A DNA stretch of 64,000 bases from Schmidtea polychroa (Eukaryota). The notes beneath the pieces are model-generated. The model was not told the origin of the DNA. It did not search any database and saw only the letters and a program-made list of their open reading frames with translations. The DNA lies in assembly GCA_044892525.1 (NCBI GenBank), contig CM097886.1, positions 126,480,001-126,544,000 on the forward strand. Reading direction: 5' to 3'. Made by a program: the position numbers and the translations under genes. Shown piece by piece: positions 1-64,000 of this stretch (position 1 is its first letter; each line of letters starts with the position of its first letter).

Positions 1-784
1 AATCCGTATGCTATTCAAATATCTTAGCCATGACCCATCCATGCTTAAGATGAGCTTTGGCTTAACGACACAAATCCATCAATTTATCTACTTGATCTAC
101 TTGTTTCCATTGAATTATATCTTGAATAAGTTATTAGCTTAAACAATTCCATGTCGACATTTTGTAGGTCAAATGCTACTTGTAGCACAAAGTACATGAC
201 GTGTGACCTTGACGTATTTATACTATCAATTGATAGGTCAATCGGAGTAATAATGATGATTATAATAAATATATATCACTGAATATATACAAAAAACTGT
301 CTATTAAAACAAAAAAAGCGAGCAGCTGAAAAGTAAGAGTAAATTTGTTCGTGATGCAGTAGACGAGAAATCAAGAAGAGAGAATTGCAGATCAAATATT
401 AATGGAGAAGTTTATAGCAGCTGGAAATTTTATATATAAGATTACCGGAAATTTTTTTTTGCGTTTTTCACGCTTGGTCTAATTTAACGGAGCCATCATT
501 AATTACTGCACGCTTTCTNNNNNNNNNNNNNNNNNNNNNNNNNNNNNNNNNNNNNNNNNNNNNNNNNNNNNNNNNNNNNNNNNNNNNNNNNNNNNNNNNN
601 NNNNNNNNNNNNNNNNNNNNNNNNNNNNNNNNNNNNNNNNNNNNNNNNNNNNNNNGATTGAGAATAAGTTTTGTTGTCCCATTTGCAGGTGGGTGGCGAG
701 ATTAGCAAATCAGAATTCAGTTGAATTCAGCCTCTGACAAGCAAATCGCATCATATTTCCACTAGTAATTTCCCTAGTATTTTC

Positions 785-4355: not shown

Positions 4356-5092
4356 TCACAATTTGTCAATTACGACTTCGGCAAATAAGGTCTCGAGGTC
4401 AAACAGTTCGGCCGCATTATCCTCCCATGTTACGTTGGTAGATGTTATCACTAGGAAATCTTTCACTCCGCTCTTTATTGAAGGTTGTAAGGCATCTGCA
4501 GGTACGTTTCTCTCACTAATTCTCAAACGATGGACTTGGTCTATTAGGCGCAGCTTCTGTCTTTTCTTCCGCTTGGCTCGAGACAATCGCCGGCGCTTTG
4601 GGTTTTCTAATCTTATTACACTGTCAGTTGCAACGGGTGATTGAAAAGTTTTTGGCGCGACTTGACTAGTGCCGGTGATTACGACTTCAGGTATCGAGGG
4701 GGATAAATCGGCTTCTACGCAATTTCGGCAGGTTTTTTGAGACAGTCGATGAGAATGATCCGAGTAATCGTGGTGAAGGAAAAAGCTATCGGTATGTCAA
4801 CGATCTGCTTGGTTAATGTGGCCTGCAGATAGATCTTGTGTAGGGTTTCCGACTGTTCCTTGATCAATGCGCGTTGAGGGCGGCTTTCCTCGATCAGGCT
4901 ATCACGGCAATGTTCGCTCCGGAATAGCTTTTCCACACTTACTTCAGTTGAGGCGGGGAAAACCAAGTTCGATTCATCGATTTTGCGCTTAAGAAGCCCT
5001 GTCTGCGGCTATAGGGTCTTGATGATACCGTTTTTGTCCGCGCAAGAAATGCACGGGGCGTGTAGGACTTTGGTAGTTCGGTTAGTTGCCAT
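4356..5092 (-). pseudogene. Frameshifted copy of the LTR-encoded ORF (homolog of 51558-52301)
   Basis: CISCADKN, KLFRSEHCRDSLIEESRPQRALIKEQSETLHK, CRNCVEADLSP, KRRRLSRAKRKKRQ and WEDNAAELFDLETL match ORF 51558; splice acceptor TTTCCAG just before the ATG. Confidence 0.9.
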
Positions 5093-15235: not shown

Positions 15236-15239
15236 CAAT

Positions 15240-17050
15240 GATTATTTGGCAAAAGCTGTCAAAACTTTGAATACTTTACCTTTAACCAACTCTGTTTTTA
15301 CTGGTGCTATTGTTTCTGAAAAAATATCTTTTCTTACAACTTTGCCACTTCATTAAATGTTCTTGAAACTACTTATGAATTACCACCGATCTGGGAAGGT
15401 GTCACTGAAGATGAGTATAAAAAAGCTCAGGAGATTTGGAATGAAACTAGATATGTAAATTTGCTTGACTATATGATTATATATTTAAACTTGATTGTTT
15501 TCTTTTGACTGATTTCTTTCAACAATTCCGTTTGAAATCTATAGCTCACAATAGGTTAGAACCATTGAATTATTTCGGAAATCCTGGTATATCTTGGTCT
15601 TCTTCTTTAATGTCGTTAGATGAACCAATTGAATTGTTCACTGAAAACGAAATTCTTTGTTTTTACGAGATTGGAATAAGTGGAGGTCTTACTTTTGCAA
15701 ATAAACATTTTGTGATAAAACTAGTGAAAGCACAAAGTTGCTTTATATTGACATCAATAATCTTTACGGTTGGGCTTTAAGTCAACCATTGCCTTGTGGT
15801 GAATTTGGTTGGGTACTAGATAGATTTGATTTTATATTGGTTGAATGTTTGAATTTAAATCTCGAATCTTTGTCTTATTAATACACTCTTGAAGTAGATC
15901 TTGTAATTCATTCTGAGCTTCATGATAAGTTGGATAATTTCCTTGTTGCAGTTGAAAAAGTTGGGTCAAAGATAGTAAAATTGTTATTAACCCATTACCC
16001 AAAAATTAATTATGTGATTAATTGGTTATTGAGGTTATACTTGGCTCTTGTTGTAAATAGAGCAGTAAAGTTTTAACAAACTCCTATTTTTAAAAAAATA
16101 TATAGACACTAATACAAAATTAAGAACCAAAAGTACAAGCACATTAGATAAAAACTATTACAAGTTATTAAATAACAGTTTGTATGGTAAAACTTTGGAG
16201 AACTTAACGAGAAGAATGAATCTACGATTATGTGCTACCGATAAAAAGCTTGTAACATACACATTAAAACCAACATTAAAAAAATCTATTAAAATTGATG
16301 ACAATTGATAGCTGCCTTGTTAAATTCTGATTCTATATGTTCAGATCGACCAAGCTACAATGGCAATCTGTACTTGATCTATCTAAACTTCGTATTTATA
16401 TGTTGACTTGGAAAAATATAGACAACAGTTTAATTGTGGCATTAATATAGTTGTTGGAGTACAGACTTTTTCTTTTTAGAAATTGTAAATTGTAAATTAG
16501 AAAATCTTTTGTCAGAAATGGTTAAAGATGAACTTTTGGTCACTTCTAATAATCCTACTGATCACCCTCTCTATATTAAAAAAAACTTGATTCTGTTATT
16601 GGAAGATTTAAAGATGAGAGTAAGGGTGAAAGATATGTAGAGTGGGTATTCTTAGGACCCAAGTGTTACAGCTTGTTAGGTAAATCAAAATGAATATAAG
16701 CTAATGGAGTGTTTTTAAAAGATACAAAACTTGACCATAAATTATATAAGGATTGTTTTAATAAAAACATTATTTTTTCTGTTCAACAATTTTGTATTGG
16801 TACAAAGAATCATCACCAAACTTTATAAATTAAAAAATAGCATTAACTAATAAGGACGATAAAAGGGTTTGGTGAGAAAAAATAAAAGTTGTGCATATAG
16901 TCATGTAAGGTTAAATAATATTAATAATAATAATAATAACGAAGACATTGAAAATAATGACAGAGAAATTGATGAAATTGATGAATTTGAAGACAGAGAA
17001 AATAATGCAGAAATTGAAGATGAGGAAACAATACAGAAGATGAATTAATA
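15240..17050 (+). pseudogene. polB: Polinton/Maverick-type protein-primed DNA polymerase B, 3' half, heavily degraded (copy 1)
   Basis: Collinear with 29545-31315: LAKAVKTLNTLP, D.NNLYGWALSQPLP, YKLLNNSLYGKT, acidic tail. Confidence 0.88.
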
Positions 17051-28050: not shown

Positions 28051-31000
28051 AAATTAAGAGATATTATTAACGAATTAGGCTCAGTCAAAATTCAATTCGG
28101 AATAACAATCGAATTTGAAAAAGACGGGGAAATAAAAGTTAATAATATCTCTAATAACGCGAAACCATTATCTGCATCATTTTTTGACGAAGGTATTAGG
28201 GAATTAAACGAAAAAATCACTAGTATTACAGAGTTAGGAAGTAGTTGGATAGTAAAAAATATAACCGAAATCCATTTCACTATAACTAAAATAAGTAGGT
28301 TAAGTAAGTTAAGTGGTAGGAGTTTTATTGAAACACCAACTTATTTGAAAAATAAATATTGTTTAATTAATATATAAATACTGATGATTCATGTTTTCTA
28401 TATAGCATTTTAGCTATTTTAAAATATGATGAGATTAGTGGTTATGCCAGAAATAGGACATCGAGTTATGATTTATCCGACCTTGCATACGATTCGTCAG
28501 ATTTACCAATGAAACTAAAAGATATTAAGAAATTTGAAGCCAAAAATCCAGGTTTAATAATTAATGTTTTTACTTATGACAATAATAGACAATTGATCGA
28601 AAATTATGTATTAAAACATCCACATTTGGATATTATACACCGTTCCAAAGTTTTAAATGGAACTATAATTAATTTATTATTATTAAATAAAGGAAAAAAT
28701 TCCATTACATAGCTATAAGCAACTTAAATAGGTTAATGAATTGCCACATAAACACTAGTTGTCCTACACGAATACAATCATTTTGGTTCCAGCGGTGTTT
28801 GAACGGGTTTAGATAAAAACACGCGCTGGACAAACTTGAATATGTTGTAAAAAATATGTTGTGTAAAAGAAATCAGTTAGGAACGACGCCTTACACATTC
28901 CCTCAAAATAAATTATTACAGTTTACTGACTGGTCGAAAACAATAACTCCTCCATTTGTAGTTTATGCCGATTTTGAGGCTATTTTACCTTCCGACATTG
29001 TTCACTTCCAACGACACATGCCAATATCTGCTGGTCTTTTACTTGTTAATAACTTTGATGGATCTAAATCTTATCAACAGTTCATAGGTTTAGATTGCGT
29101 CGAAAGTTTTTAAGTGCTATAGAGGATATAGCATTAAATAAAGTTCTTCCTTTTTATTATAAAATGGGTAGGAAACCTATGGTGAAATTAACTAATATTG
29201 AACAACAGCAATTTAATAATGCAGAGAAATGTTACCTTTGCATGAAATGTATCGTCGATACTGTTAGAGATCACGATCATTTTACTGGGAAATACTTGGG
29301 TGCTGCTTGTAGCATATGCAACATAAATGGGAAAATTAATGAAATTTTGCCTATCGTATTTCACAACTTGAAAGGATACGATATGCACCATATCCTTAAA
29401 TATGGTTTAAATAAATTCAAGAATTGGACTTTAGGCTGTATCCCAATCACAACTGAAAAATTTATTTCGTTGATTGCATATTTAGGAAAAATTAGCTTAA
29501 GATTCATTGATTCTTATCAATTTGTTAATGATTCTTTAGCTAAAGCCGTCAAAACATTGAATACTTTACCTTTAACTAATTCTGTTTTTACTGGCACTAT
29601 AGTTTCTGAAAAAAGAATCTTTCCTTACAATTTCGCTACATCTTTAGATATTCTCCAAACTACTTATGAATTACCACCGATCTGGGAAGGTGTCACTGAA
29701 CTTGAGAATGAAAAAGCTCAGTAGATTTGGGTTGAAACTAATTGCGTAACTTTATTAGACTACATGATGATGTACTTAAAACTTGATTGTTTTCTTTTGG
29801 CTGATTTCTTCCAACAATTTTGTTTGAAATCTATTGCTCATAATAAATTAGAACCATTGAATTATTTCGGAATTCCCGATATGTCTTGGTCTTCTGCATT
29901 AATGTCTTTAGATGAATCAATTGAACTGATAACTGAAAACGAAATGTTTAGCTTTTATGAGGGTGGAATAAGAGGCGGTCTTACTTTTGTAAATAAAAAT
30001 TATGTAAAAACCGATGAAAACACCGAGTTACTTTATATAGATATTAATAATCTTTACGGTTGGGCTTTAAGTCAACCATTACCTCGTGGCGAATTTATTT
30101 GGGTTCTTGATGGATTTGATTCAATAATGGACGAATGTAGGAACTTAAATCTAGAAAATTTGTCTTAGGGATACACTCTTGAAGTGGATCTTGTAATTCC
30201 TTCTGAGCTTCATGATAAGTTGGACGATTTCCCTGTAGCTGCTGAAAAAATGAAACCTGTTGGGTCAAAGGTTGAAAAATTGTTATTAACTCATCTTCCA
30301 AAATCTAATTATGTGATTCATTGGAGATTATTAAAATTATATTTGGAACTTGGTGTTAAAGTAACACATGTAAATAAGGGTGTAAAATTTAAGCAATCTC
30401 CAATTTTTAAAAAATATATAGACACTAATACCGAATTAAGAAAAAAAAGTACAAATAGTTTAGACAAAAATTATTACAAATTGTTAAATAACAGTTTATA
30501 TGGTAAAACAGTAGAAAATTTAAAGAGAAGAATGAATCTTCGTCTTTGTACTACCCACGGTAAATTAGTTAAATATTCTTCAAAACCTTCTTTTAAAAAA
30601 TCCATTAAAATCGATGATAATTTAATTGCAGCTTTGTTAAATCCAGATTCTATATATTTAGATAGACCAAGTTACATTGGTCAATCTGTACTTGATCTAT
30701 CTAAATTTAGAATGTATGAATTACAATATAAAGATTTAGAAAGATATCGCAATGAGTTTAGATTAAATTAATATCGTTGCAGGTGATACGGACTCTTTTT
30801 TTCCTGGAAGTTATTAACTGCAAACTTGAGGTTCTTTTACCTGCAATGATCCGCTATAATTTATTAGATACTTCCAATTACGATACTTGTCATTCCTTAT
30901 ATAGTAAGAACCTTGATTCAGTCATTGGAAAGTTCAAAGACGAGAATAAAAGTCTTAAATATAAGGAATGGGTTTTTCTTAGACCTAAGTGTTATAGTTT

Positions 31001-35568: not shown

Positions 35569-36986
35569 TCACTGGAATACCGTAACGTTCTTAGATATTT
35601 TCTAAATCGATTCTTATCTTACAGGTAATTTTTAAAAATACTTATATTGACTCAATTCAATGTTACAATTAATTTCTAAACTAATTTAATCGTGTGTTTA
35701 CATTAAAAATCGTTTGTGCTGTGTTCATTTATTTTTCTTACTTGTTTGAAAAGCAATAATAAAACTTTTAATGAGGATTTTCAACCCATGTCAAATTTGA
35801 TGTGTGGCTTTTTGATTAAAATTATTATTTTTTTTGTTTTTCACCTGGAAAATTTCATAAAATTATTGAAAATATTAAGGATATTTAAAACAGAAGGCAA
35901 AAATAGAAACACACACACACAGATACACACAATCATATAATCACAGACAATCAATTGATTTATGCCAATAATCCTAATAATTAATGCCAGTTCTAATTGC
36001 TCCCAAAAATGTTATTGATTATTGGACTAGTGCTGGGCACCTCATTAGAATCCCTATGACAAATAGATCAGCTCATTTTGTAGAGAAATCTGGAAAGATT
36101 TCCCACAAGAAAAAAATCAATTTCGCTCGCAAATTACGAGTCGATGAGACGAAATAAAATTTCAATTGACCAGGTTGATTTTCTTTGATTTGTTATGTTT
36201 CTCAATTATTTGTTTTAATGTGAGTTTCTATGATTTTTTTATTCATTGCTTCATTTATACAGCGTTGTATTTCCAGTTGGGTGGTTCCAATGGTCGACAG
36301 TCAGGACCCTTTACCTTTGTTGATTATCTGTCATCATCTAATTGCTTAGAATCCTTGTTTGACATTTGCATCAGCACTGGATAGCACCCAAATTTAATTG
36401 CTTTTTTAAAACTATTGATCAATATATTGTTTTATGTTTAACACAAATTTTCGGTTATGCCGTTTTCAAACAAAATGAGTTTTAAAAATTTGTGCTAAAT
36501 ATACATGTTGGGGTTGTCGGTGAAATGTAAAATTAACAATTATTGACCTGACTTCAAAAAGTGGCTTATGTTGGTGCTTACGAAAAGAACAATAAAAAAT
36601 AAAAAGGAGAATTGAAGCTGTAGGTACAAGTATGTGTCTAGTGTGATCGCTAACTTCCGTAATTCGCCGTATGATTCGACTCTCCTCGATAATGTTGTCC
36701 CGATAATGTTCGAGTCAGAACACCTTCTGATTAGTTGCTTTTGTATGGCTTGGGGAGAGCTATGTTCCCTCAAGCCTGTCCATCTTTATCTTTAATAACG
36801 GATGTATTCCTGTTGTGCTCGGACAATCGAGTTCTTATCCGAAAATAAGAAACATGGCTTTAGCTGAAGATTGAGTTGAGACATTTGCTGTAATTATACT
36901 GAAAAGAACATGAAAAAGCAATCATAGTAGTGATAGAGGCAAAATTGCAGGGTGGTCCACTTGAAAAAAAATATATATGAGCAAAA

Positions 36987-48055: not shown

Positions 48056-49292
48056 GTTTCCTATAATATAACAAAAAAATTAATAATCTTACATTATAGA
48101 AACATACATACTTACTTTGATTTCACGTGGATGTTCTCATTTAGAGTGCAGTCAGATACATCTTATACTATAGAAATCTGAAAAGTGGAAGAAAAATTAA
48201 AAAACTGCACACAAACACAAGACATACTAAAAAACACATACAAACTTTTGATTCATCTAAATGCACCGCTGGGAAACGTTTCTATAATTATTCTATTTTA
48301 AACAATTTTTAGATAAAAAAAAGATCACTGAAAATTTTTAAAAATATATTTTCAATGAAATTTTCAAGAGCAGATGAATTTGGTTCAATGTCTTTTCAAT
48401 CCATATTTGCTTTCCTGAAAGAAGCTCCTCATATTGAGCTCAGAAAAAAAAATCACAAAAATTATTTTATTTTTATTATTCGGGGATTTTTCCCAAAATG
48501 TTTTAGAAAAATACATATTTTTGGTAATTCATTTATTTAATTATAATTAAAAACATATCTAACTCACATTTTTTCGAAAATATTCCAAAATACTTGTCAT
48601 AAAATATCAAAAATCCCTGAAAATTATTTAAAAATAATTTATAATTATAATGTTGACTAAAAGTAAAATTTAAGAACTTGAATAATGATCTCATATCTAT
48701 ATGGATCAAAATTGAAGACTTAAAATTTACTTAAAAGTAAAATCTTGCCTGAAAGCCATTTCTAAAATGGCTAAAATAAATTTCCAAAAAACATTCATTA
48801 TTGTAAGCAATTCAGTGAATTGTTTTACACACCAACCACAACTATAGAGAATGTATCTCAGTGGTGTTTGGTGTAAACAGGTAAAAATTGAAACTAAAAT
48901 TCTCGGTAGCTACAGAAAAGACCTTTGTTAAAGGGAGGTTTTCGTTATATTGTGGGATAAATACTGTTGGGCTGAGCCGAAAGATAGCTGGGAAATCAGG
49001 TTAAACTTAACTAAAGAAAAATAAAAAAATAAAATAAATAGATCGAGGAATAAAATAGAATAGAACATAAGAAAAGTAATAATTAGAAAATAAGAATTAA
49101 AACAAAAAACATAAAAATAAGAACAATTAAATAGGACAATAGAATGACGAAAAATAACGTAAAAGGTAGTAGATAATAAGGAAATTAAGGAAAATAAATA
49201 AAAACATAATTTTAATAAAGAAAATAAGAAGAAATAACCCAAAAACAAGGAAAATAAATTAAATGAATAAAATAAGGCGGTACTCAATTCTG

Positions 49293-49325
49293 ATTGGTCC
49301 GCATAAACAAAAAATACCTATATAA
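49293..49325 (+). promoter_or_regulatory. Candidate Pol II promoter in the LTR (inverted CCAAT plus TATA)
   Basis: ATTGG at 49293, TATATAA at 49319, followed by a splice donor GTAAGA at 49375. Confidence 0.5.
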
Positions 49326-51557
49326 GTAAGCAGCAAATTCACTATAATCAATGTTAAAATCAAACCAATTATAGGTAAGAATAGTATTAACTATATGAAA
49401 TAAATGTTAAAATCAAACCAATTATAGGTACTCGACAATCAGGAAAACCAAACCATACTCAGCCAACTATTAGGGACAGTTCTATAGACTACTCATTCAT
49501 ATAACCGATTGGATCAGTTTATATTTCGGCTCAGCCTTTGGAACTACAGAATTTTTCAAATAATAAAGTAAGGATGTATTGCTATTATGAATTTGTTTTG
49601 AAGGATTTAAATATTTCTATTATATTAACCTAACTTTTGAATAAAAACTTCTCCATTCGGTTTCGATCTTTTAACGATTTTATGGTTCATAAATTAATTT
49701 ACAGGTCAATGAATTATAAATATTTATGTTATGTTTTGTCATCAAACGTATTGATTATGCTAAAATTATTTGTTTTGAGAAACGTGGAGTTGAGGAGACC
49801 CACGCCATGGTATGAGGAGCCTTCGGGAGCTCAGCCGGCGGGTGTGGATCTCTTCAATCACGCAGCTGACGTGGGCCGGAATGTGGGGGCTTCCTCACGG
49901 GTCCGTCGCTGAGGGAAATAAAATGCTGCAAGCACGAGTTTAAAGTGTAGAGGAAAATATTCCAATATTGAAAAGTAGAGCAAATCTGAATTGAAAATGA
50001 CTGAGGTGGCTACAAACTCTTCCAAGTATGAGAATCTCATTTTCTTAGGTACTATACTTTGAAATTTTCGTCTAACATTATGAATTAGGCTAGATCGACT
50101 ATTCACTTCCATGATACTCTATCATCTTGCGATAAATCCCCTTTTCGTCAAAATTCATGTCAATTTTCATCTTAACTGATAGAACCCAAGAGCTAATACA
50201 TTCACTCTGATGTTATGCAGTAGTATAGGAAGTATATATGGAAGATCACTGAACGCTTTTATTTACTAAAAAGATATTTGGAGGAGTACGTTATTGTTTT
50301 ATCAAAAGCGCCTTAACTCTTTCTGAAATCCCCAATAGCCGTAATCTGAAGTCCGTTCAGTAAAAGACCCTCTGGCCTCATAACACAGTAAACATACAAG
50401 GAGAATTTACAAAAGTATTTAATTAAAAAGATAAAATTTCGTAAAAAATTATTTATTTTCATTAACAAACTATAATTCTGAGTTACCAGTAGTAGGAGCA
50501 TAATAATCATTTCGGGAAGTTACCCTTGATAGATGTCGCCAAGATGAGGAAGGGCTTGAGCGAGTTGATAAAATCTCCACCGGACAGGATATTCTGATGT
50601 AAAGCGAGAGAGGCGGTATAATAAAAAATTTTCCAAATTTTCGTGTTTGCTGAGAACTAAACAGTAGATTCATATCGGAGCTGAATGATTAAATTCCAAA
50701 AATCGATGTAATCCAAGTTCGGCAGCATAGATAAAATATGAACATGTACAGTGAGAAGGTATAGTCTGTCTGTAAGTAGGCAGTGAATGAGATTGAGCAA
50801 TCACCTGCAGGTAGAATCACATGTACAATAGCGAACAATTGCATATGGCTTAGTCGATGTGATACTCATGCTGCCGGTACGGTAGCAGTGAATTCACAAT
50901 TTAATCATCGATAATGAGAAAGCCGAATCCCATTGCACACACATGGTGAACACCAACTTTTCTGAGAGATCTGAACACTAAACCAGTTGACGAGGAGGCA
51001 TGCAACAGATGGTTTGCATCATACGTGTCATACAACTAGAATAGAAATTAGACTAGTCTAACTTATCAGCAGTGTGATTGATCAAACAGAGCAAAGTCCA
51101 TTTGACTGTAAAGTTTTTGTAATCGCACGCATTTACAATTAACTCAAATTAGAGTAGCATAATCACGAATAAACTCAAATCTTTTAATTAATTTATTATC
51201 CCGATGTACTGCACCTGTCTGAATTGTTTTGCTGATAGTAAAGTCGAATCTGGTCACGCTCATGTATTGACAAGTTTTCTTAATCCGCAATAAAATTATC
51301 ATGTTGGGCAAAAGGGGGGGGGGAGAATTAATTTGTTAACCCGTAAACCTATAATTACTTTACGGATGTAATATCGATCAACAGGAAGTTTCGCTAACAG
51401 TCATTCCGTTTTCTTCTTGTCGGTCATTTCAACCCATGAACGTAATGTAGGGAATTTATGAGCCTTAATAAATAATTACGCTACTCTGATGGATTAGTAG
51501 AGCTAGCCAATTTTCGTCTTATCTCTATTATTCTTTCTTCATTATAGCTATCAAAAG

Positions 51558-52301
51558 ATGTTGCCAAGCACGAAATCGCCCATCAAACCCTGCTTCTCCT
51601 GCTCGGATAAAAATACCGTAATCCGAGAATTACAGGCCCAGATCGGTCGATATAAAAAGAAGATCGACGATCTGGAAGGTACATGGTTTAGCCCAGTACA
51701 AATGAAGGAAGTTCAAAAGAAATTGTACCGCAGTGAGCATTGTCGCGATGCTTTGATAAGCGAAAGTAGAGCTCAGCGTAGCCTAATCAAAGAGCAGTCC
51801 GAAGCTCTACATAAAGTTTATGTTCAAGCCGCTACAACCCGAAGGATTGTTAGTATTCCGATTAAAGAAGCGGACAATGTCTTCCCCGTTCACCATGAAC
51901 CTTCATTTAGTTCGCCACCCTTGTCGAAAAGATCTTGTCAGGAATGTGTGGAGGCCGACCTCTCCCCCAGGCCATCGGACGTACCTACTACCGGCACTGG
52001 CAAGGTATTGCATTCAGCCACGACGTCCTCGGCAATCTTGTCTGCCAACCCCTCAAAACCTAAGCGCCGCCAATTGTCCAGAGCGGAGCGTAAGAAGCGC
52101 CAACGTGAACGAGCAATTGTCAAACAACGAGAACTATCTGTCAACCACCCAAGTGCTTCGAATGATCCACCCGTAACGATCGATCTGACCGTAGGAATCC
52201 CAGGGCGAATCATATCTGCCGCTGGTGTGGCTTGGGAGGAGAATGCCTCCGAGTTTTTTGATCTAGATGAGCTATTGGCGGATGCGGGGTGGGAGAAGTG
52301 A
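51558..52301 (+). CDS. LTR-encoded 247-aa protein: CxxC, coiled coil, CxxC, basic NLS-like stretch, acidic aromatic C-terminus
   Basis: Intact ORF; acceptor TTCATTATAG at 51547; AATAAA at 52432 and 52437; conserved with many synonymous changes in 4356-5092. Function unknown. Confidence 0.85.
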   Translation: MLPSTKSPIKPCFSCSDKNTVIRELQAQIGRYKKKIDDLEGTWFSPVQMKEVQKKLYRSEHCRDALISESRAQRSLIKEQSEALHKVYVQAATTRRIVSIPIKEADNVFPVHHEPSFSSPPLSKRSCQECVEADLSPRPSDVPTTGTGKVLHSATTSSAILSANPSKPKRRQLSRAERKKRQRERAIVKQRELSVNHPSASNDPPVTIDLTVGIPGRIISAAGVAWEENASEFFDLDELLADAGWEK

Positions 52302-52880
52302 TGGCCGCAACACAATGCAACCGTGCAGGGTGCGAATGGACAAATAAACTATCTTGACTCTTTTTCTTCTTAATCTATTCTCCACCAAGTGTACTTGTTA
52401 TGTAGTGTATAATTCTCTAATGTATCATGATAATAAAATAAAGAAATTTCTGGTTAAATTTTAGTTGTTGTTTAAATCTAACTAGCTGTGGTAAAGATTC
52501 AGAGTAGTGTTCGCAAAGCGAGAGTAAAGTTTGAGTTCGAGAGGCAGTGGTCAATTTTGTGCCGAATAATGGGTCAGGGTAGAGGGAGAATCTGATGAGG
52601 TAAACAGACGTAAGTCCTTCCATCGGCCGTCAGAAAAGGGAAGTCGAGGCCTCAGTAAGGAGTAGTCCTAAGGTAGGGGCTCACCTGCTTACTGGAGTCT
52701 CGCCGACATAGCACATTTCCAACGTGAAGCAATTCGCGGGTGCTATGTTGGAGGGCAAGTTGTGCGGGGTCCTGCTCCGGGTTGACACGGGCGTATGTAG
52801 CGTAATGATATGGGCACGCACCCCCTAGACAAGGACGTAGATTGAGCAGAGTCAACCAAGCACTACCCCAGCATAATTTT

Positions 52881-52898
52881 TGGGGGCTCAGCCGGGAA
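52881..52898 (+). promoter_or_regulatory. Primer-binding site, tRNA-Pro-like
   Basis: TGGGGGCTCAGCCGGGAA vs canonical Pro PBS TGGGGGCTCGTCCGGGAT (15/18), 7 nt after the LTR-terminal CA. Confidence 0.75.
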
Positions 52899-53157: not shown

Positions 53158-53643
53158 ATGACGGAATTCGCAGAACAGATGCAACAATTAATTAATTTCA
53201 TTAATATAGAAAACGACCCTATTAAAACACTCATACAAAAAGGAAAGCGAATCAACAGCATTTTACTCCAAGCAATCGGACATGCACCAGGCGTACCTAA
53301 TCACGTGTTATTGGCCGCAGGTTTAAGCCACCCAGATGAAAAGATAAATCACGAAACAGTATATCAATGGTACCTAAAACGACTAAAAAACCCGGCCCTA
53401 AATCTAGAATACGAGCGAATAAAAGATCAACTACATACAATATCAGAGGCAATCGAACAAAAGATACAAGAGAAACTCACCAAATTGCGAACCTGTCTGT
53501 CTTGCAATCTTCGCCCTATACGCATACTATTCTTACCTTGTGGACACCTCAGTCATTGTGAAGAGTGCGTGAAAGATCTGAAACGATGTGCAATATGTAA
53601 AAATGGGATAAAAGAAACCCATATGGTTTATTACGGTGATTAA
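53158..53643 (+). CDS. 161-aa protein with a C-terminal IAP-type C3HC4 RING finger and no BIR domain
   Basis: CLSC-X11-PCGHLSHCEEC-X6-CAIC at the extreme C-terminus; polypyrimidine tract and AG at 53154-55; AATAAA at 53759 then a T/GT-rich tract. Confidence 0.9.
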   Translation: MTEFAEQMQQLINFINIENDPIKTLIQKGKRINSILLQAIGHAPGVPNHVLLAAGLSHPDEKINHETVYQWYLKRLKNPALNLEYERIKDQLHTISEAIEQKIQEKLTKLRTCLSCNLRPIRILFLPCGHLSHCEECVKDLKRCAICKNGIKETHMVYYGD

Positions 53644-54200
53644 AACGACTAACCAGATGCAGTGATGTATATGCGCACTAAATTGATAAAAGACCTTTGA
53701 ATACGAATATATGTACTTTTAAGTGTGAAATAACTTTAATGTTTAATTTTAGTCTCAGAATAAATAAAAATTTTTTTTGTTGTTATGAATTAGATATTTT
53801 ATCTCTTTTAATTACATCTTTGGTTATGAGATCGAATGGAGAAGAATAAAACTAACGTGGAATTAGTCCCAATATAGGCTGCAGGGGTACAAACCGAGCC
53901 ACCTTCGGGCGGTACGTTTTATTGCAAGAACCCGTTGGGAGGGGATAACTGATCAACCCAAGTAAGAAGCGTAGGGCGGGGTACCATCGCATATGATGAG
54001 AAGTTTCTGCGGCATGACTGATCACCATACCAATGTGGAAACGGATCATCGCGATCGTCGTGCGTTTCGAGCAAGGGGGGAAAGGGGAAACACTCTCAAG
54101 CGGTAAAGATTAAGTCGACAAATTAAAAGTAGACAGAGAAAATGGTAATCTAGGGTAAAAGAAGAAAAGAGAAGTAGAAGCATGCAGAGCGGGGAATATT

Positions 54201-54570
54201 AAGATCGAGTTGTTGAATAGTCCAACCGATCAGAAGGAAGAAGATTGAGCTGTTGAATAGTGCCAGCCAGTCGTAAGATCGAGTTGTTGAATAGTCCAAC
54301 CGATCAGAAGGAAGAAGATTGAGCTGTTGAATAGTGCCAGCCAGTCGTAAGATCGAGTTGTTGAATAGTCCAACCGATCAGAAGGAAGAAGATTGAGCTG
54401 TTGAATAGTGCCAGCCAGTCGTAAGATCGAGTTGTTGAATAGTCCAACCGATCAGAAGGAAGAAGATTGAGCTGTTGAATAGTGCCAGCCAGTCGTAAGA
54501 TCGAGTTGTTGAATAGTCCAACCGATCAGAAGGAAGAAGATTGAGCTGTTGAATAGTGCCAGCCAGTCGT
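54201..54570 (+). repeat. Five identical 74-bp units in the retroelement leader; each unit is a 40+34-bp dimer
   Basis: AAGATCGAGTTGTTGAATAGTCCAACCGATCAGAAGGAAG + AAGATTGAGCTGTTGAATAGTGCCAGCCAGTCGT at 54201, 54275, 54349, 54423 and 54497. Confidence 0.97.
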
Positions 54571-55590
54571 AAAGGCCTAGAAAAATGAGAAATAGCAGTC
54601 AAGCTACAATGAGATAATATTTAAATGAATAGAGAAAGGGAATATTAAAGCTAGCTAGAAACAAATTGAATATAATTACGAAAATTTGAGTTTAGAGAGG
54701 AGATAAACGAGCTCGGGGAAAAGATAATAAAATTATAATGAAAAAGGAAGGAGAAGAAGAAAATGAATTAAAGAAATAATGAGAAAATAAAGAATAGGTG
54801 AAATGGAGATAATGAGTAGAAGAAGAAAGTAACTAGCTAGTTAAAGGGATCCCAGTGAAGTAGAGAAACTCTACGGAATTTTTTTTGGGTAAACCGGGAA
54901 AATGTATTTTTATCGGTTCCAGAGTAGAACCGAGTGGGATAATAGTAAATATGAAAAGTAAAACAGCGACAACAGCGCAAAGGAATAAGAAAACGAAGGG
55001 GGGTAATAAGCAGAGACCGACAACGACCTATTTTTACTATAATTGATAACGAATAGATAACTATTACGACCTTATAGATAATTGTTACTACCCCATATAG
55101 ATAATTTAAAATCGACGGAAAATACGGGCTGATGGGAAATTATAACCCGCAGAAAGGATTTCACAAAAGATAGGGGAAGCAAACAGAAACCTAAAAGGTG
55201 TCTGTTTTTGAATGTTGTAGAAAGAATGATGAAGTCGTGTAAGCAAATGCAACACGAGATCATTTTTTCATTTTAGATATCAAGCCAATCCAGTCAACCA
55301 AGACAATCCAGAACCTGCACAAAAGGAATTCGAAGAAATCGACAATCAACCAAGGATAAATCCATTCAGAACCCGCACCGAGAGACACAGCAACCGGAAG
55401 ACTCCAGAACGGAAGAAGATACAGATAGCGACATCTCCAACTTCGAACGAATCATCGATATATTCAACCTCATAGTATTAGCAGCCATCTGCCAAGGATT
55501 AGTAAATCTCCTCAGGATCTCAGTAGCAGATTCATACAGAATATTTATCGAAGGAAACACAATCAGAACCGAACTCGTCCAATTCAATAG

Positions 55591-56840
55591 CCGCTAATTA
55601 CCAAGAAACGCAAGAAAGGAATCACGGATAAACCCAATCTTAGATCTTCAAGTAAGCCAGGAGACGTATTATTTTCAGGAGACGAATTACAACAACTCAA
55701 AAGAGGACGATCTATTAAACATCAAAGAGGAATATCACAAGGAGCAAGAAGAACCAATCAAGTACCCATATTTGACCAAGAAAATCTCGGATATACCCCT
55801 AGTCGATCTCGAAGTAGAGAAAGTCTGTCCGATATCACTTATAGTTTAGCAACGTCAACCGAGGAATTATCAGCCCAAAGTTTAGTCACATCGTTAGACA
55901 ATTTAAAAGAAACAGACGAACCTAGAACACCAATCATGACGAATGTCGTATAAACCGATGAGTATAAAGAGAAGTTCAGAGGAGAACCGTTCAATGGAAA
56001 TGCAAACAAGTTAGCAACGTTCATAACTAATTTTGAAGTTTATATCACTGTGTGTGGATGGACACCCGAAGCAATTAGTAAAAGGATGCCGTTGTTTCTG
56101 TGCGATAGCGCATTAGAGGTATATTTAGAAGCTAAAGAGAGAGATACGAAATTAGAGAAGTGGGAAGATATCAAAACATTCCTGAAGAAAACTTTCGGAG
56201 CTAGCAAACCAATAAATCAAGCACTCGGCGAACTAGCAAATAGGAAACAAATGGCAAATGAATCTATTACGTTATATGCCAGCGAATTGCGGAGATTGGC
56301 AAAGAAAGCAATGAATGGGAAATTACCAGAAGAAAATTTGATCGGTTATTTCATAGAGGGATTACGCCGAGAAGAAGTAAGAGCCTCAGTAGGTTGTCAA
56401 ATGTGCAAAACATTAGAGGAAGCCATAGATTGGGCTACAAGATGCGAGCTCCACCTTCCAGCTCAAATGAATATTATGCAAGAGGAGGGAAGGATAGCGA
56501 CAGCAATAGCGAAAGCGGATAACGGAGATAACAACAATCAAGAACCGAAAATGAATCAATTTATACCAGGAGCGCACCAAATTTTCAAACCACCACAAGG
56601 ACGATCAAATGGGAATAATGGTAATCGTAACAACCCGAATAATGAGAACAATTTCAATAATCGACGAAATATGAACGATAACAAGCAGTGCCGAACATGC
56701 GGTAAACCAGGACACTGGGACAGAGATTGCTATAGAAATTCAAATTGTAATCGTTTAGACGGCGTGGACATACCGAAAATGTATGCCAATTGAGAGGTTG
56801 TTTTAACTGTGGTCAGCCAGGTCACATCTCCAGAGATTGC
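55591..56840 (+). CDS. gag: Gag (capsid plus 3 CCHC zinc knuckles); in-frame TAA at 55951 and a 1-bp deletion at ~56755
   Basis: EPFNGNANKLATFITNFEVY capsid start; knuckles CRTCGKPGHWDRDC (56689), CNR[C]RRRGHTENVC (56746, restored by +G) and CFNCGQPGHISRDC (56799). Confidence 0.9.
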
Positions 56841-59800
56841 CGAGAAAGGGGCCAACAACAACGACCACCACAGCGAAATAATAATTATATAGCGAATCCG
56901 CAACGACAAAGTAACCCTAACGAAGGAAAACAAATGAACGTTATGCAGGAAATTTCGCAGATGAAACAGATGATGCAACAAATGATGAGACCAAGACAAG
57001 AATCAGCACCCCAACAAACCCAGAATATACGTATGATGAGGAGTACCGAAAATCTCAACAATTATGAAGTGCATCAACATGTACAAGAATGGCAAAGGCT
57101 ACAGGCCGAGGAAGAGAGGATAAAACAAGAACGCAACCAACAACGACAAGAACAACCATTGCGAATAAATATGATGAAGTTAGTAAAAGACATGAAGAGC
57201 CAGTATTGCTACAATTACGGGAAAAACCCAAGGGTAATACCCATGACTGAACCAGAAAAGGTAAAAGAAACAACAACGGAAATGAAAACAGAGAATTCAA
57301 CCACGATTTTAAAAGGAAACCAGAGAATTCAGAAAATATTCTGGAAAAAGATAAAAGATAAAATCGAAAAAGAACATAATAAAGCGAAAACCGCGACAGA
57401 AGATGAAAATAACAAGAGCAAGGAACAAACCAGTCAACTAAACCACCAAATGCTACAAGAATTAGAATCAGAAGAAACAACAATATTCGAAAGAAAGAAA
57501 CTAAAGAGAGTACCAAGGATGAGAAACTTGCAAATCAATATGATGAAAAGGATAAAAGATGTAGCATCGTCAGACGAAGAAGAAGACTATGTAAGTAGTT
57601 TGGGTGGAGAAATACTACAGCTAAATGAAATAAGCGAACCTCCAAAAGGGGAAATCAAAGAGGAAGAAAGCGAAAGCGAGATAACCAGTGGAAGTGAAGA
57701 CGAAGATGTCGAAATAAAGTTGAGAAAAGCAGGGGAGGAAGCGATAAAACAGGTAGCCGAAATACTCCCAGTAGTAGTGAGGAACCAAGAGTTCATCGAC
57801 GTAATTCCATTCAGGCGATTCGTGCAAAAAGTGATGAAATTGGAAAGAAACGAGAAAGATCTAATACCAAACGAGGAAAAATCAATTATAAAAAAGTATA
57901 TGGAAAAAATGAAGCAGGCCGATACCACGCGGTATGTAATAAAAATTGGAACGAGTAGAGGACTTGAAAGAATGTGGATAAAAAATACAGTCACCGACGA
58001 ACTTTTCGATTGGATACGAGAACATTTGGGAAGTTCGAGAAAGAAAGAATATCTGTATCAATACCAAGGTGAACAGATCAAACCAGATATGCACTTAGTA
58101 GATGCACTGATATGGCCAGGAGAAACGCAAATACTGAAGTTGCATAAAGAAAAACAACCAGCCAACCTTTACGATTGGGCTAAAGATGCCAAGGCAGAAT
58201 ATGATTTTAATATCAAATTGAAATTAGAACAAATAAAACAATGTACTCTGAGACGAAACCTGGATAAGCTGATCAAACAAATTCAAGAACAAGTAGAAGA
58301 CAACTGGGATTTACTCATCACCAGACGAGCCCCAGCCATGTACGAACTAATGAGCCGGTTGCGAGATACAGAAATGCTCCGAATGAGTGATTGGAGAACC
58401 ATAAATTTGATCCACAAATATGGAAGGTTAAAAGAAACCCAGCCACAGAGGTTGGAAATAACCATATGGTTACCGAACGAAGAGAAACGACGAATAAAAA
58501 TGAGCAATCAGAGTACAGTAGATGACTTGGTATCAAAAATAAACCAAGAGATAACGGAAAAGGTACGTAGCGAAAGTAGTGATGGTATGGTGGATGATGT
58601 AGTCATGATGTACGATAAAATAATATTACGAGCGGAGGACGACACCTCGTTAAGCGAAATGGGTATGTGGGACAATCATCAGATAATCAGGATAGTACCA
58701 ATGGATGAATTCCGAACAAGAGATGTAACCTATCAAAAAGAAATACGAGACCGGATGAAAACGTTATATCAAAAATCTACAGAAATAATTGAAATCCACC
58801 AACAATGGTTAAAAGAAAAAGAGCTACAAGGAAAAATCACGAAACTAAGTACCAGATCCTGCAGACGGACTCCATGGGAAAGAGTGTGGAATACAGAAAA
58901 TAAGGAATGGGAAATCAGGAAAGGGATCTTCGTAGAAACAGACATTGGTGAGACAGAAAGTGAATCGGAGGAAGAAGAAGAGGAACCTCCAGAATATGAA
59001 GAGGAAGCAAGGGAACAGACATCAGATGACGAAGGCGAGACGGATGTCACATCAGAAAGCGAAAATGAAGCGAGACATATTCATGCAATGAGGAAAAAGG
59101 AACGTGAATATGCTGATATGGACGGCGAGGAAGCAATAGAAGCAAGAGAGCGGGAAGAGAAAGAAAGATATAAACAATTAGGCGATATCTTAGCAATGGG
59201 AGCGAAAAATCAAAAACGCCAAGTAGTAGCGTTGGCTAACATCATCTTAAAGACATCAGAGAACATCCACAATCTGAGAGGAATGGCAAAGGCAATAGAG
59301 GAATACCGGCAATATAATGAATGGTATCCAGAACAGCTAGAACAAATTATTCGAAAATGGAGAAATCAGGAATGGGCACAAGACACCCAGGAGAGGTATC
59401 ACATCCGAATCAAGTATCCGGACAAGAGCATCGAGGAACTAGAGGTACATCCAACAACAAAAATTAGAGAATTAAAAAAGAAATTAGCATATGAAACTCC
59501 ATTCCATCTGCAACTATTCGGAAAATCACTAGACGATAATGCAGACGTCGGGATAACACCCATGAGATTGGAAGAGACAAATGTATTAACAATGGCAGAA
59601 ACGTTGGGGAAACCGTTAAAAAGGAAAAGTAAAATTACTAAACCAACAAAAGGCAGTTTGAGTACTCCAAGTCCGAACAAAGCACCAAGTAAATCTAATG
59701 AAACTGAAGAAGTTGAAGAGATAATCCTGGAAGATAGTGACGATGAACCAGGAGAAAGATCACCGCTATTAGTGAGATGGCCGACAGGAGCCGAAATGTG

Positions 59801-62800
59801 GACTAATAACCAGCCATCAACGAGTTATCAACAACCAACGAAACTGAACATCAAAGAAATCATCGACAATACTACGGAAACCGAAACGGATGAACAATTC
59901 CAGAAGCAAAGAGAACCAACGAAAGTAACACCAGAAGGTCAAACCGACAAAATAATAGACGAATGGAATGAGTGGCTAAGAAATAACGATAGCTCATTAC
60001 CCAGAACGGATAACGAAAGAAATCCGAATTACGAAAATACCAGAGAAGCCGGAACGATGATGGAAAAACGGGCAAAAGGAAGACCTAAGAAACAAGGAGA
60101 AAAGTCTGAGTTCAAAACCAAAGAACAATTAAAGCAAGAACAAGGGCAAGTTCGATTAGAAAAATTGGATAAAATAGTATGGGATCTAAAGGAAGCCCAA
60201 CCAACGATCGAAAGAGGAGAAAAATGGATACGTGAATTGTTAAAAGATATGTTAATAATAACAAACCCACAACTTAGACGTTTGTGGCAACGGAAAGTAG
60301 CCAGTACGGAAGCTAGACAATTATGGCACACCATTTCGGGGATAATCCCAAAGTTAATCAAAGAGAAAACGAAAACCACCAAAACGGATTGGGACGAAAC
60401 GAAGAAAGTGATTGAACAGCTCACGACAAATGCAAATGATGACGAACATCATCTAGTGGTAATCACGTATTTGATGTATAATTTGATGGGACTAGCTGCG
60501 AGGAAAATACCAAATAAACAGTTTGCAAATCATGTGGAAATGACCGTTTCAATCATAGAGAATACTATTGAACCACATATTATTCGTGCAGGAGGATGGA
60601 AAAGACTGATACAAGCGCCACGAAAAAATGAGCAAGAAAGGTCGATGCAAGTTAGATTGAAAAAACTGTTAAATGAACTAGAATGGGAACTACCGATGAA
60701 AGATCCCGCAAGCAGAAAAGCATCAATAAATTCGTTAATGATGACTATGATGATATGGATGTTGTGCACAAGTGGAGCAACAGGTTTTACCATCTACGAT
60801 TGTGATAATATGATAATGAGAGATAAATACTCATTGAGAGACATAGAAGAATGCAGACAAGCCTCACCCAACAAATTGGACATCGTGAGAACAAAAGTTA
60901 CTTACCATGTATATCAAGAATCAGATTTCATCAGAACGCAAGCAAGGGAATGCGTAGTATCAAAAAAGGTACTCGCATATTACTGTGGACAATATTCGTA
61001 TTCGACTCTTATACTACCCGGTCTGGATAAAGAAATCGTATCAATACAACGAGAGGACTGTAAAGAGCTATTTAGAACCGGAGCGCTAAAAATGCATAAC
61101 GGAGTGACGATTCACGGACAAACTGGAATGATTAAAACCGAAAGTGTTTACGTATCCGGAAAAGTAAAATCATCAGATGGGTCATGTAACGGAGGTACGT
61201 ATACGATCCGAGGCGAGGTAATATCGGGAGTGGTAGTGATCGAGTCTTATACGGTCGAATTAAAAGAATACGAAGCGCAATTTGACGCAAATAATTATCA
61301 AATGAAGACCAACCCAGCGTGTAAAGCTACAGAAAACGTATGCAGGACAGGAGTATCAACTATAATCTATGATGCTAATACCCAAAAATGCCGACTCCAA
61401 CTGTTAAAAAGTGCTTTGTTCAATGAAGTAAAAGGAGAAATTTACGAGAACGAGAACGACGAGGATGGAAACGACAGAGTGAGAATGCGAAATGGAAAAC
61501 CAATGCCACCATCTCCCAGAGAAAAGAGACTTTCAACGCAGAAGACACCAACAGCATTAATCACAGACGATCCAGATCTAGGTATGAGATTTATCAAAGA
61601 GAAAGAAACCACCAAATGTGACAGTATAGTATATAAAACCAATTACGCAGGTATCTACATGTCGAGACAAATAATCGATAGAGCAGTGGGAAAGATAGCA
61701 ACGGAGGACGTAAAACTATACTTATATGCAAATAATAAAATGGATTTTCTATTTCATCGCGGACAAACGACCTTACAAAAAGTATATTACGATCTGATAC
61801 AAAACGATTGTTCATTGAATAAAGAAATATTGAAAACAAAGCTAGCTATTGCGATAACGCACCCCGATAACACGATGCCATCACTCCCACTACCAGACGG
61901 ACATTTTGGTAGAATGGTAGGAGAAGTGATGTACACATACCAGTGTACCAAGACGTATGCACGAATGCCAGAAAAATCCATACTACCCGAAAAGAGATGT
62001 GCAAATGAATTAGAAATTCGTTATAAAGGACAAAATCGATTCGTCCAACCAGTCACTAGAATCATGAATCCAGTGGGTTTCTACCCAAATCTCTTTAACT
62101 GTTCTAATGCATACGGACCTTTGTATGAAAGACCCGATGGGAAATGGATGATGTTACCGGGAAAAACCATATCCGAGGAACCCAAGAAATTTGGATTAAT
62201 AGAACTCGCCACAGAGCTGGATTTCAAACCTATAGACGTGTCAAACGGTGGTATGTATTCCCCAGAAGATCTAGAAACAGCACGACTTAACGTACTCTTC
62301 CCAGCCAGACGAGAATCCATTTTGTCTAATATGGTAACAATAACTGGGGGCACAAACTATCAATCAGGCCCGAATTACGAGCTGCTATTATCGCCAGACC
62401 ATTTTCAACAAGCTACGTCAAACATGATGAAAGCCATGTGGGGAAGATTCTTAGTTTTTGGACAAATGATGGCCGGGATATTAGGGATCATACTCATAAT
62501 TCAGATAGTTAGAGTAATACTAACACAAATGTTAGCTTGTTTCGATATATACAAGCGGGAAAAGAAAGTTAATTGGAAAATGATAGTAGGTTTCTTACCA
62601 TTTTTAGCTAAAACCATGGTATTACATGGTCACTCAAAAGACATTCATCGGATAAAGCGATTGATTAAAATATTAACAAAGATTAAAGGAACCGACGAGG
62701 AAGTAGGCAGACGATTCCGGAAAGTAATGTACGACGAAACAACAAGACGACAATTGAAAAAGAATAAGCCAAAATTCTTGGACCGATTTAGAAGCCAATC

Positions 62801-64000
62801 ATCTAACAGCGATAGTGACGACGATGATGACGGGAACGATAAATGTCTTTATCCAAACAGAAACCCAAACGAAAAACCAATGGAAACGGCACCATATTGG
62901 GAAAAGGAAAAGACAAACACCTGGATCGCCAATGGAAGCTATATACCACCGGATATCGTGGGACCACAAGCAGCTTTGACCATGACACAAAATATGTATC
63001 CGCAATTACCGAGTCAACCCGGTATGCATTATATGCCGACACGACGTACCAAAAGTGTAGATCAAGCAGATGACGTAAGAACAATCGCAGCGATGAGTCT
63101 ACCTGGAGGTCCAGCAGTGACAGTCATGATCCAAATCAATGGTAAAGAAACCAATGCTATGATAGACACAGGAGCTAATGTATCAGCGATAGCGATTAAT
63201 CAAATCCCCAGTAAACACTGGAAAGATATCGAATCAACAACAATTCACATCATAGCATGTAGTAAAGAAATAGTGGACGTGGTCGGAAGATGGTGGACTA
63301 CTTTGAGATACCAGGACAACGAAATTGAAACGTATTTGGCAGTAATACCAAAACTTAGCGTACCATGCATAATCGGAACGGATTTGATGCCAGAATTGTT
63401 AAAAGAAGTCGTAATTGACTTAACCACCATGTGTCTAAAAGACAAAACCGGTAGAATATGCAAAATGAATGCAGTAATCAGATGTCCAGAAAAAATAATA
63501 GTACCAGCAAAATCGCAGATGATTTGTCAGATAAAAGTGGATACGGGTATGGAAGGAGAAGTTATCTTTGAACCAAGCAAGTCATTCGAAAAGCGACGAG
63601 AGTTACCACTCGCAAGGGAAATAATAACAATAAACCAAGAAGGAGTGATACCGCTCAACATCACGAATTTCGAAGAAGAAGACAAAATCATTTATGAGAA
63701 CGAAAAATTGGGAAGATTGACCCCAATGATGGACATAGAATTACCGAGAGTGACCAACGAGATGATCAAAGATGATGAATTATGGACAATAGATAGTATG
63801 TTGTTGACGAATGATGAAAAGAAAAAATTGCACCGTTTGTTGGTGGAATATAAAGATATATTCGCCATCTCAGATTTAGATTTGGGTACATGCGATGTTA
63901 CCCTACATGCAATACCCCTCATAGATGAAACTCCAATTGCATTAAGACCATACAAGCTAGCAGAAATGCAAAAAGAAATAGCCGAAGCAGAAGTACAAAA
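56757..64000 (+). CDS. Stop-free polyprotein frame (~2,414 codons, 3'-open): NC, Ubl x3, Bcl-2-like, signal, glycoprotein, TM, PR, dUTPase-like spacer, RT start
   Basis: Translated by hand in the frame with codon starts divisible by 3 without meeting a stop. The ORF track lists no terminated ORF in this frame, as expected for an ORF running off the end. Confidence 0.92.
57930..58149 (+). other. Ubiquitin/SUMO-like domain A in the polyprotein
   Basis: YVIKI..ERMWI..TDELFDWIREHLG..YLYQYQGEQIKPDMHLVDALIWPGETQILKL follows the beta-grasp pattern. Confidence 0.55.
58449..58700 (+). other. Ubiquitin-like domain B in the polyprotein
   Basis: LEITIWLPNEEKRRIKMSNQSTVDDLVSKINQEI...VMMYDKIILRAEDDTSLSEMGMWDNHQIIRIV parallels ubiquitin along its length. 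Confidence 0.7.
59394..59600 (+). other. Ubiquitin-like domain C in the polyprotein
   Basis: HIRIKYPDKSIEELEVHPTTKIRELKKKL..LQLFGKSLDD vs ubiquitin LEVEPSDTIENVKAKI..LIFAGKQLED. Confidence 0.72.
60153..60615 (+). other. Bcl-2-like helical domain in the polyprotein
   Basis: Central hydrophobic helix HLVVITYLMYNLMGLAA, then SIIENTIEPHIIRAGGWKRLI resembling BH2 (Bcl-xL: YLNDHLEPWIQENGGWDTFV). Confidence 0.65.
60720..62640 (+). CDS. env: Envelope glycoprotein segment, chuvirus-G/gB-type (class III-like): internal signal peptide, ~550-aa ectodomain with 14 Cys, furin site, TM
   Basis: Signal SLMMTMMIWMLCTSGATG|FTIYDC; YYCGQYS; DGSCNGG; REKR at 61518; GRMVGEVMYTYQC; CANELEI..FVQPVTRIM; NCSNAYGPLY; GGMYSPEDL; TM FLVFGQMMAGILGIILIIQIVRVIL. 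Confidence 0.85.
63114..64000 (+). CDS. pol: Pol start: retropepsin, dUTPase-like spacer, N-terminus of RT
   Basis: IQINGKETNAMIDTGANVS (DTG at 63165), CIIGTDLM; then KDIFAISDLDLG..HAIPLIDETPIALRPYKL, typical of the Ty3/gypsy pre-RT region. Confidence 0.93.

Follow-up and report, generated by a model that had tools for sequence, protein, structure and literature searches.

Does the open reading frame found inside a long terminal repeat (LTR) at this locus constitute a gene, in which part of the LTR does it lie, and what might its product do for the element that carries it? The window (the whole stretch of 64,000 nucleotides that was analysed) contains the 5′ part of a Burro-type Ty3/gypsy element of 29,798 bp (29.8 kb), whose LTRs are 3,909 bp long. 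The 5′ LTR (48965..52873, +) pairs with a 3′ LTR located outside the window (L032:2854-6762). Both have TG..CA ends and they differ by 3 mismatches over 3,909 bp (99.92% identity), none of them in the frame. The target-site duplication ATAC is found on both flanks of the element (left copy, 48961-48964); together with the near identity of the LTRs, it indicates a recent insertion. The frame (51558..52301, +; 247 aa) is open throughout and lies wholly within the LTR. An identical protein copy is found 25,889 bp further downstream, in the 3′ LTR. The initial annotation had proposed an intact 247-aa ORF internal to an LTR and followed by a primer-binding site, and this description holds: a tRNA-Pro primer-binding site is found at 52881..52897 (+), its 17 nt being complementary to the tRNA-Pro of the genome itself plus CCA.

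Downstream of this site, the window includes a RING-finger accessory ORF (53158..53643, +), with its own conserved acceptor and an AATAAA downstream (~53760), then a gag that is broken in this copy, followed by one long frame encoding a Monjiviricetes-type fusion glycoprotein and a protease (55954..64000, +). Reverse transcriptase (RT), RNase H, integrase and ankyrins are encoded beyond the window, 3′ of the protease. Other ORFs of the element encode TRAF-MATH and coiled-coil proteins. Pfam matches are PF03732, PF24664 and PF00077 for the gag, fusion glycoprotein and protease part, and PF00078, PF17917 and PF00665 for the RT-RNase H-integrase part; a scan of 10 ORFs of the element gave no BIR domain such as that of Burro1. 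Behind a single leader, the element may use several terminal exons as alternatives. The leader before gag carries a 74-bp tandem unit present five times (54200-54572), all copies being identical. The long frame (56793-64000) has a weak ubiquitin-like match (E 0.084) between gag and env, as described for Burro. An AG directly precedes the ATG of the TRAF-MATH ORF and that of one coiled-coil ORF. Genes for tRNA-Pro(TGG), the primer tRNA of the element, form a large tandem array with a 475-bp period (G000:C1:130,901,000-130,949,000; L124-L126); the tRNA-Pro 3′ motif has 2,190 matches in the genome. Elsewhere, the window contains a rhodopsin-family GPCR in a single open frame of 415 aa (1072-2319, +) and two copies, 75% identical, of a Polinton-like, protein-primed DNA polymerase B (29068-30771, decayed, and 15237-16924).

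At least 150 copies of the LTR gene are found in the genome, this number referring to the best 150 of 6,623 candidates (76-100% identity). No internal stop is found in 133 of these best 150 matches, the ranking by score favouring intact copies. Pairwise dN/dS was calculated for 80 distinct intact frames, taken from 121 fetched loci with a match, saturated pairs (1,273 of 3,160) being excluded. The mean is 0.34 for pairs with dS<0.02, 0.16 for dS 0.2-0.4 and 0.08-0.12 for dS>0.7. The higher values among close copies fit neutral decay after insertion and selection while the element replicates. A codon model applied to 41 natural copies with less than 95% identity, the set to which the counts out of 41 below also refer, gives an omega of 0.17 overall, which bears out the purifying selection proposed in the initial annotation. 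Residues 10-100 (N-terminal helices) have an omega of 0.05, the second CxxC 0.10, the basic helix 0.08, the acidic tail 0.12 and the linkers 0.33-0.70. Could the frame nevertheless be conserved for RNA or DNA reasons, or be young and neutral, and encode no protein? The failure to find an outside homologue would suit such an explanation. However, synonymous sites saturate while N-terminal residues hold, omega values of 0.05-0.17 refute it, and the start, the acceptor and the length (247-249 aa in most copies) are kept across subfamilies. It is therefore extremely improbable.

In diverged copies, the distance of the ORF from the start of the LTR is mostly 2.2-2.9 kb, and that from its end 0.5-0.6 kb. 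In the most diverged ones, only four blocks of the LTR can be aligned: the 5′ promoter part, an intron block, the ORF and a post-ORF block. A distant solo LTR (L159; G000:C2:111356500-111363400, −), flanked by the target-site duplication TGTC, has the same plan of promoter, intron, RNA structure and gene as the window LTR. Its gene is 47% identical, is devoid of the second CxxC and is broken in frame close to its end. Two further relatives are found in the window itself. One is an old, broken paralogue within an LTR remnant (4356..5092, −), the other a strongly decayed fragment (36613..36863, −). Over the 237 codons of the paralogue aligned with the ORF, differences at positions 1/2/3 number 100/73/156, and 72 of the 111 identical residues are written with a different codon. 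It has one stop and one frame break near 4800. The downstream LTR block is present at ~4077, whereas a search of the window found no promoter motif on the strand of this copy, which is therefore an LTR remnant and not a whole solo LTR. The initial annotation had presented it as a diverged solo LTR; the excess of third-position differences that it reported is real, whereas the gene is broken and only a remnant of the LTR persists.

Promoter, splice and poly(A) signals surround the gene and are conserved. An imperfect dyad including a reversed CCAAT box (49277..49303, +) is a candidate factor-binding site and is near-invariant down to copies with 63% ORF identity. It is followed by a TATA box (49319..49326, +). 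The predicted exon 1 (49350..49374, +) begins at a putative RNA start about 30 nt after the TATA box, which would be the start of R. It is followed by a GT..AG mini-intron of 53 nt (49375..49427, +), whose final 25 nt duplicate exon 1, by a predicted non-coding exon 2 without ATG (49428..49567, +) and by a large GT..AG intron of 1,980 nt (49568..51547, +), which nearly all LTRs retain. The poly(A) signal and predicted end of R (52432..52442, +) consist of two overlapping AATAAA, with a GT/T-rich stretch after them. The promoter is present in the fetched stretch of 40 of the 60 loci examined, and the second donor, of GTAAG type, is found about 275 nt past it in 37 of these 40. In 38 of the 41 copies, the ATG is preceded at 5-11 nt by a YAG acceptor, which itself comes after a tract with a mean pyrimidine content of 78%; the acceptor postulated before the ATG is thus conserved, and in the window it ends at 51547. 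A poly(A) hexamer is found at +105..150 from the stop in 39/41 copies, versus 5, 0, 0 and 2 in control windows. An AATAAA after the ORF had been pointed out as well: a conserved signal does exist (52432), but it is not the first AATAAA (52343), the corresponding interval (+10..55) having one in 5/41 copies only. The middle of the large intron (50021-51500) has been swapped between subfamilies, copies that are 96% alike failing to align there while some copies that are 77-81% alike do align.

One locus (L078) is a full LTR minus the large intron, the donor being joined to the acceptor exactly at GT..AG, and the joint shows no repeat that could explain a deletion. According to this DNA, the large intron is an intron that has been spliced out and reverse-transcribed at least once. 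This is the only LTR without the large intron that was found by pattern; when the pattern was widened, this LTR was missed and the single match was an unrelated one. Neither a poly(A)-tailed retrocopy nor an LTR with the first donor joined to the ORF was found by pattern. In the contigs of 7 runs, whose library type is unrecorded, none of the joints listed falls at one of the two introns; these contigs are uninformative. The mini-intron has been lost in 5 of the 40 LTRs; here, recombination between its repeats could equally be the cause. The gene and its splice plan are nearly certain to be real.

In which part of the LTR does the gene lie? The copy of exon 1 at the tail of the mini-intron is found in 35 of the 40 LTRs, and the repeat begins at TATA+27..31 in 32 of these 35. 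The two repeats are 95% alike within a copy (31 copies), compared with 68% for diverged copies compared with each other (494 pairs). As the simplest cause of the repeat, reverse transcription would, in every round, copy the 5′ end of the spliced RNA up to its first base and land on the mini-intron tail. This would place the RNA start at about 49350, and the gene would then belong to an R region of ~3.1 kb and not to U3. The ORF is located 2.2 kb downstream of the CCAAT/TATA, which is the only conserved core promoter of the LTR, and the only conserved poly(A) signal is the one after the ORF. In the window, no TATA box was found downstream of the ORF; 8/41 copies have a loosely TATA-like word close to the stop, which is not conserved. 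The ORF and the sequence past the poly(A) signal stay linked (Spearman 0.73-0.77, 946 pairs), and of 496 diverged pairs none is discordant, whereas correlation of the ORF with the first 300 bp of the LTR, upstream of the dyad, is low (Spearman 0.12-0.31, 528 pairs); the pairs are non-independent. The swap point coincides with the dyad and so precedes the putative RNA start by about 40-50 nt; owing to this offset, the mosaic break points were not retained as proof of the U3/R border. With a start deduced from DNA, location of the gene in R is probable.

Two covarying RNA structures were found in the LTR. The first, with two stems, lies within the large intron (49783..49911, +) and shows two-sided changes in 16 of its 51 pairs, versus 9.5 after shuffling. 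The second lies in the predicted U5 (52607..52749, +), begins with a donor-like GTAAG and shows two-sided changes in 21 of 40 pairs, versus 11.5. The shuffle test is inflated for both by the relatedness of the copies; both are also above slid controls. Rfam gave one match at chance level (E 0.54), outside both structures, and no family at the intron structure. A ribozyme reading of CTGATGAG at 52592 was discarded, as this sequence is not conserved and has no Rfam match. The LTR start (48965-48982) has a complementary motif close to the end of exon 2 (49522-49535), and the intron structure includes, at 49826-49839, a sequence nearly identical to the primer site for tRNA-Pro (52881-52897). A long-range pairing or a second contact with the tRNA is possible from these two observations.

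The protein includes a CxxC followed by two long helices (12-99), a second CxxC (127-130), an S/T/P linker, a basic helix and an acidic aromatic tail (218-247). The helices, predicted at 15-42 and 46-99 and capped by C12/C15, have a high local confidence but an uncertain packing (N-terminal model: pLDDT 78.4, pTM 0.39; full model: pLDDT 57.9, pTM 0.34). The basic helix is placed at 167-185, with a helix predicted at 175-195; the S/T/P linker is predicted to be disordered, as is most of the acidic tail, which has a short helix. C12, C15, C127 and C130 are found in 41/41 copies, and H61, C62, H85, H112 and H113 in 40/41. Metal (Zn) binding is plausible from the conservation of these Cys and His residues. 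The initial annotation had noted both CxxC motifs in the broken copy (4356..5092); in the main set the second is present in 41/41 copies, but it is absent from the 47%-identical gene of the distant solo LTR; the proposal that both form one obligatory site was rejected for this reason. The basic helix has 11 K/R in 21 aa; K169, R170, E177, R178, K179, Q182 and R185 are invariant (41/41), and K and R interchange at positions 180-181. The last 30 aa include 8 D/E, 1 K, 7 W/F/L and one LxxLL. Within the tail, W226, F233, F234, L236 and L239 are kept in 40-41 of the 41 copies, and the tail remains recognisable at 47% identity. The strict predictor of acidic activation domains, as given in PMC10550315, combines a charge <= -9, WFYL >= 7 and a diagonal term; p53's first activation domain (-6, 8) likewise lies outside its boundary. 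The make-up of the tail and its conservation fit an acidic activation domain; one of the 41 copies passes this rule and most are just outside, at -8/-9 with 7-8 WFYL. The motif VTIDLT (residues 206-211), just before the acidic tail, is SIM-like and present in 22/41 copies. Forward patterns of nuclear export signals are found at any one site in at most 3/41 copies; only reversed patterns recur (28-30/41).

Searches for relatives outside the element gave no credible candidate. Pfam has no domain for the window protein, a coiled-coil match below the cutoff (CALCOCO1, E 0.006) being found in one of three relatives. No credible homologue was found by phmmer among 1.84 billion representatives; a match at E 2.7e-4 to a repetitive protein of 1,171 aa involves its low-complexity part only and was judged due to chance. 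A profile of the 41 copies found no protein at near or shorter lengths among 5.8 billion, and PDB sequences include no match to the LTR protein. ESM Atlas gave scores <0.9 only, Foldseek with the predicted models nothing at E<=0.001, and VIA-align generic helical hairpins only (Z<=9.9). In these searches no sequence relation to Tas, Tax or Tat was found, and the protein was assigned to no family. In the literature, as far as titles and openings of abstracts go, no gene inside a Burro LTR is described; Lee et al. 2026 and Grohme et al. 2018 were outside this search and may describe the ORF.

What could such a protein do? The reading tentatively preferred, at a little less than an even chance, is that of a nuclear activator of the element's own expression, acting by positive feedback; a Tas/Tax-like activator had already been suggested in the initial annotation. 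It is preferred because of the layout: an N-terminus that would oligomerise, then a basic helix, then an acidic aromatic tail that is conserved. RNA would start near 49350, lose two introns and end after 52432. With this short spliced message, any LTR, even a solo one, would by default make this protein first; its ATG is the first one after a 7-codon frame at the putative cap. The CxxC-capped helices would oligomerise. The basic helix would carry the protein to the nucleus and onto a target in the LTR, either the promoter dyad or, in the fashion of Tat, a structured RNA in R. The acidic W/F/L tail would then recruit host co-activators and close the loop. A target in the 300 bp upstream of the dyad is unlikely because this part has been swapped between subfamilies independently of the ORF.

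The retained intron and its structured RNA would be better explained by an RNA regulator of the Rev/Rex/Rem type than by an activator. Made from fully spliced RNA, such a protein would bind structured RNA (the retained intron or U5) through its basic helix, oligomerise, and let full-length RNA that keeps the intron pass the 5′ poly(A) site and exit the nucleus. The mini-intron looks spliced while the large intron stays in nearly all LTRs, so full-length RNA must keep these 1,980 nt. One covarying structure lies within the large intron and another just past the poly(A) signal, and the density and invariant positions of basic residues in the helix would suit RNA binding. As described in PMC3856414, Rev-like proteins bind a structured element, multimerise and carry CRM1 export signals. 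However, no forward leucine-rich export signal is conserved here (at most 3/41 copies), atypical signals being still conceivable, and the K/R interchange at 180-181 counts against this explanation. The structures could also be packaging, dimerisation or host-export signals that involve no protein of the element, and the conserved acidic aromatic tail would not be needed. On balance, this RNA regulator appears somewhat unlikely. Less likely still would be a host-directed effector comparable to the RING, TRAF-MATH and ankyrin cargo, which would bind a host factor of chromatin, SUMO, the PIWI pathway or survival and shield the element or the cell without recognising the LTR. The SIM-like motif and expression from every LTR would suit such a trans-acting factor, yet this motif is kept in part of the copies only, no host homologue or domain came out of the searches, and the invariant polar residues point to a basic helix that does more than direct nuclear import. 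Three papers agree with a role of this kind: apoptosis and ubiquitin modules abound in the cargo of Burro (PMC6431247 section 7), the Burro1 IAP is reported to protect stem cells (as cited in PMC13465017) and BURRO1 rises on smedwi-2 RNAi (PMC8532177). Even so, this reading is improbable.

In a wider proposal, a Ty3/gypsy element would have independently evolved a complex-retrovirus switch within a 3-kb R. Every LTR, solo ones included, would be a spliced gene complete in itself and would encode an orphan regulator; this regulator would recognise a structured RNA or DNA site of its own LTR and license full-length RNA that keeps the intron. This is possible, although we are more inclined to doubt it than to accept it. 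If a spliced and selected gene does lie in a multi-kilobase R, solo LTRs, usually read as debris, would be expression cassettes. If an activator or an analogue of Rev is encoded by a Ty3/gypsy element, complex-retrovirus regulation arose outside Retroviridae. Planarians would be a tractable system: their Burro elements respond to PIWI loss (PMC8532177) and, according to a report cited in PMC13465017, help stem cells.

By inference, the LTR gene would work like a regulatory gene of a complex retrovirus, and several known systems can be compared with it. The layout of Tas, a basic segment and an acidic C-terminal tail, is also that of the LTR protein. The element itself resembles Burro / GYPSM1, a planarian Ty3/gypsy (PMC6431247 section 7): both are about 30 kb, with LTRs of kilobase size, tRNA priming, a fusion glycoprotein between gag and pol and a cargo of ankyrin, TRAF-MATH, RING and coiled-coil proteins. 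This comparison was made by layout, and it suggests that the host is a planarian; unlike the element described here, the Burro of that section has no LTR-internal gene listed. HIV nef and MMTV sag/rem are also protein-coding sequences in an LTR that are expressed by splicing (PMC12789967). The likeness to nef and sag put forward in the initial annotation does not extend to position, since these genes lie in U3, upstream of the RNA start, whereas the window gene lies downstream of the LTR promoter, probably in R, with its own introns and poly(A) signal. According to the same paper, retroviral R is non-coding and 15-250 nt long, compared with ~3.1 kb predicted for the window LTR, and the LTR genes that it names sit in U3. 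The position of the gene, probably R and not U3, is more unusual than first supposed. Foamy-virus Tas, HTLV Tax and HIV Tat (PMC3856414 and PMC12789967) are early regulatory products encoded by the element, as the LTR protein would be, but their genes are outside the LTR, that of Tas being expressed from an internal promoter near env, whereas the window gene is within it. HIV Rev, HTLV Rex and MMTV Rem (PMC3856414) have in common with the predicted system that the product comes from spliced RNA, that it has a basic helix and that a retained intron holds structured RNA; they differ from it by the forward leucine-rich export signal, of which no conserved counterpart was found in the LTR protein, and by their carrier, here a Ty3/gypsy element and not a retrovirus.
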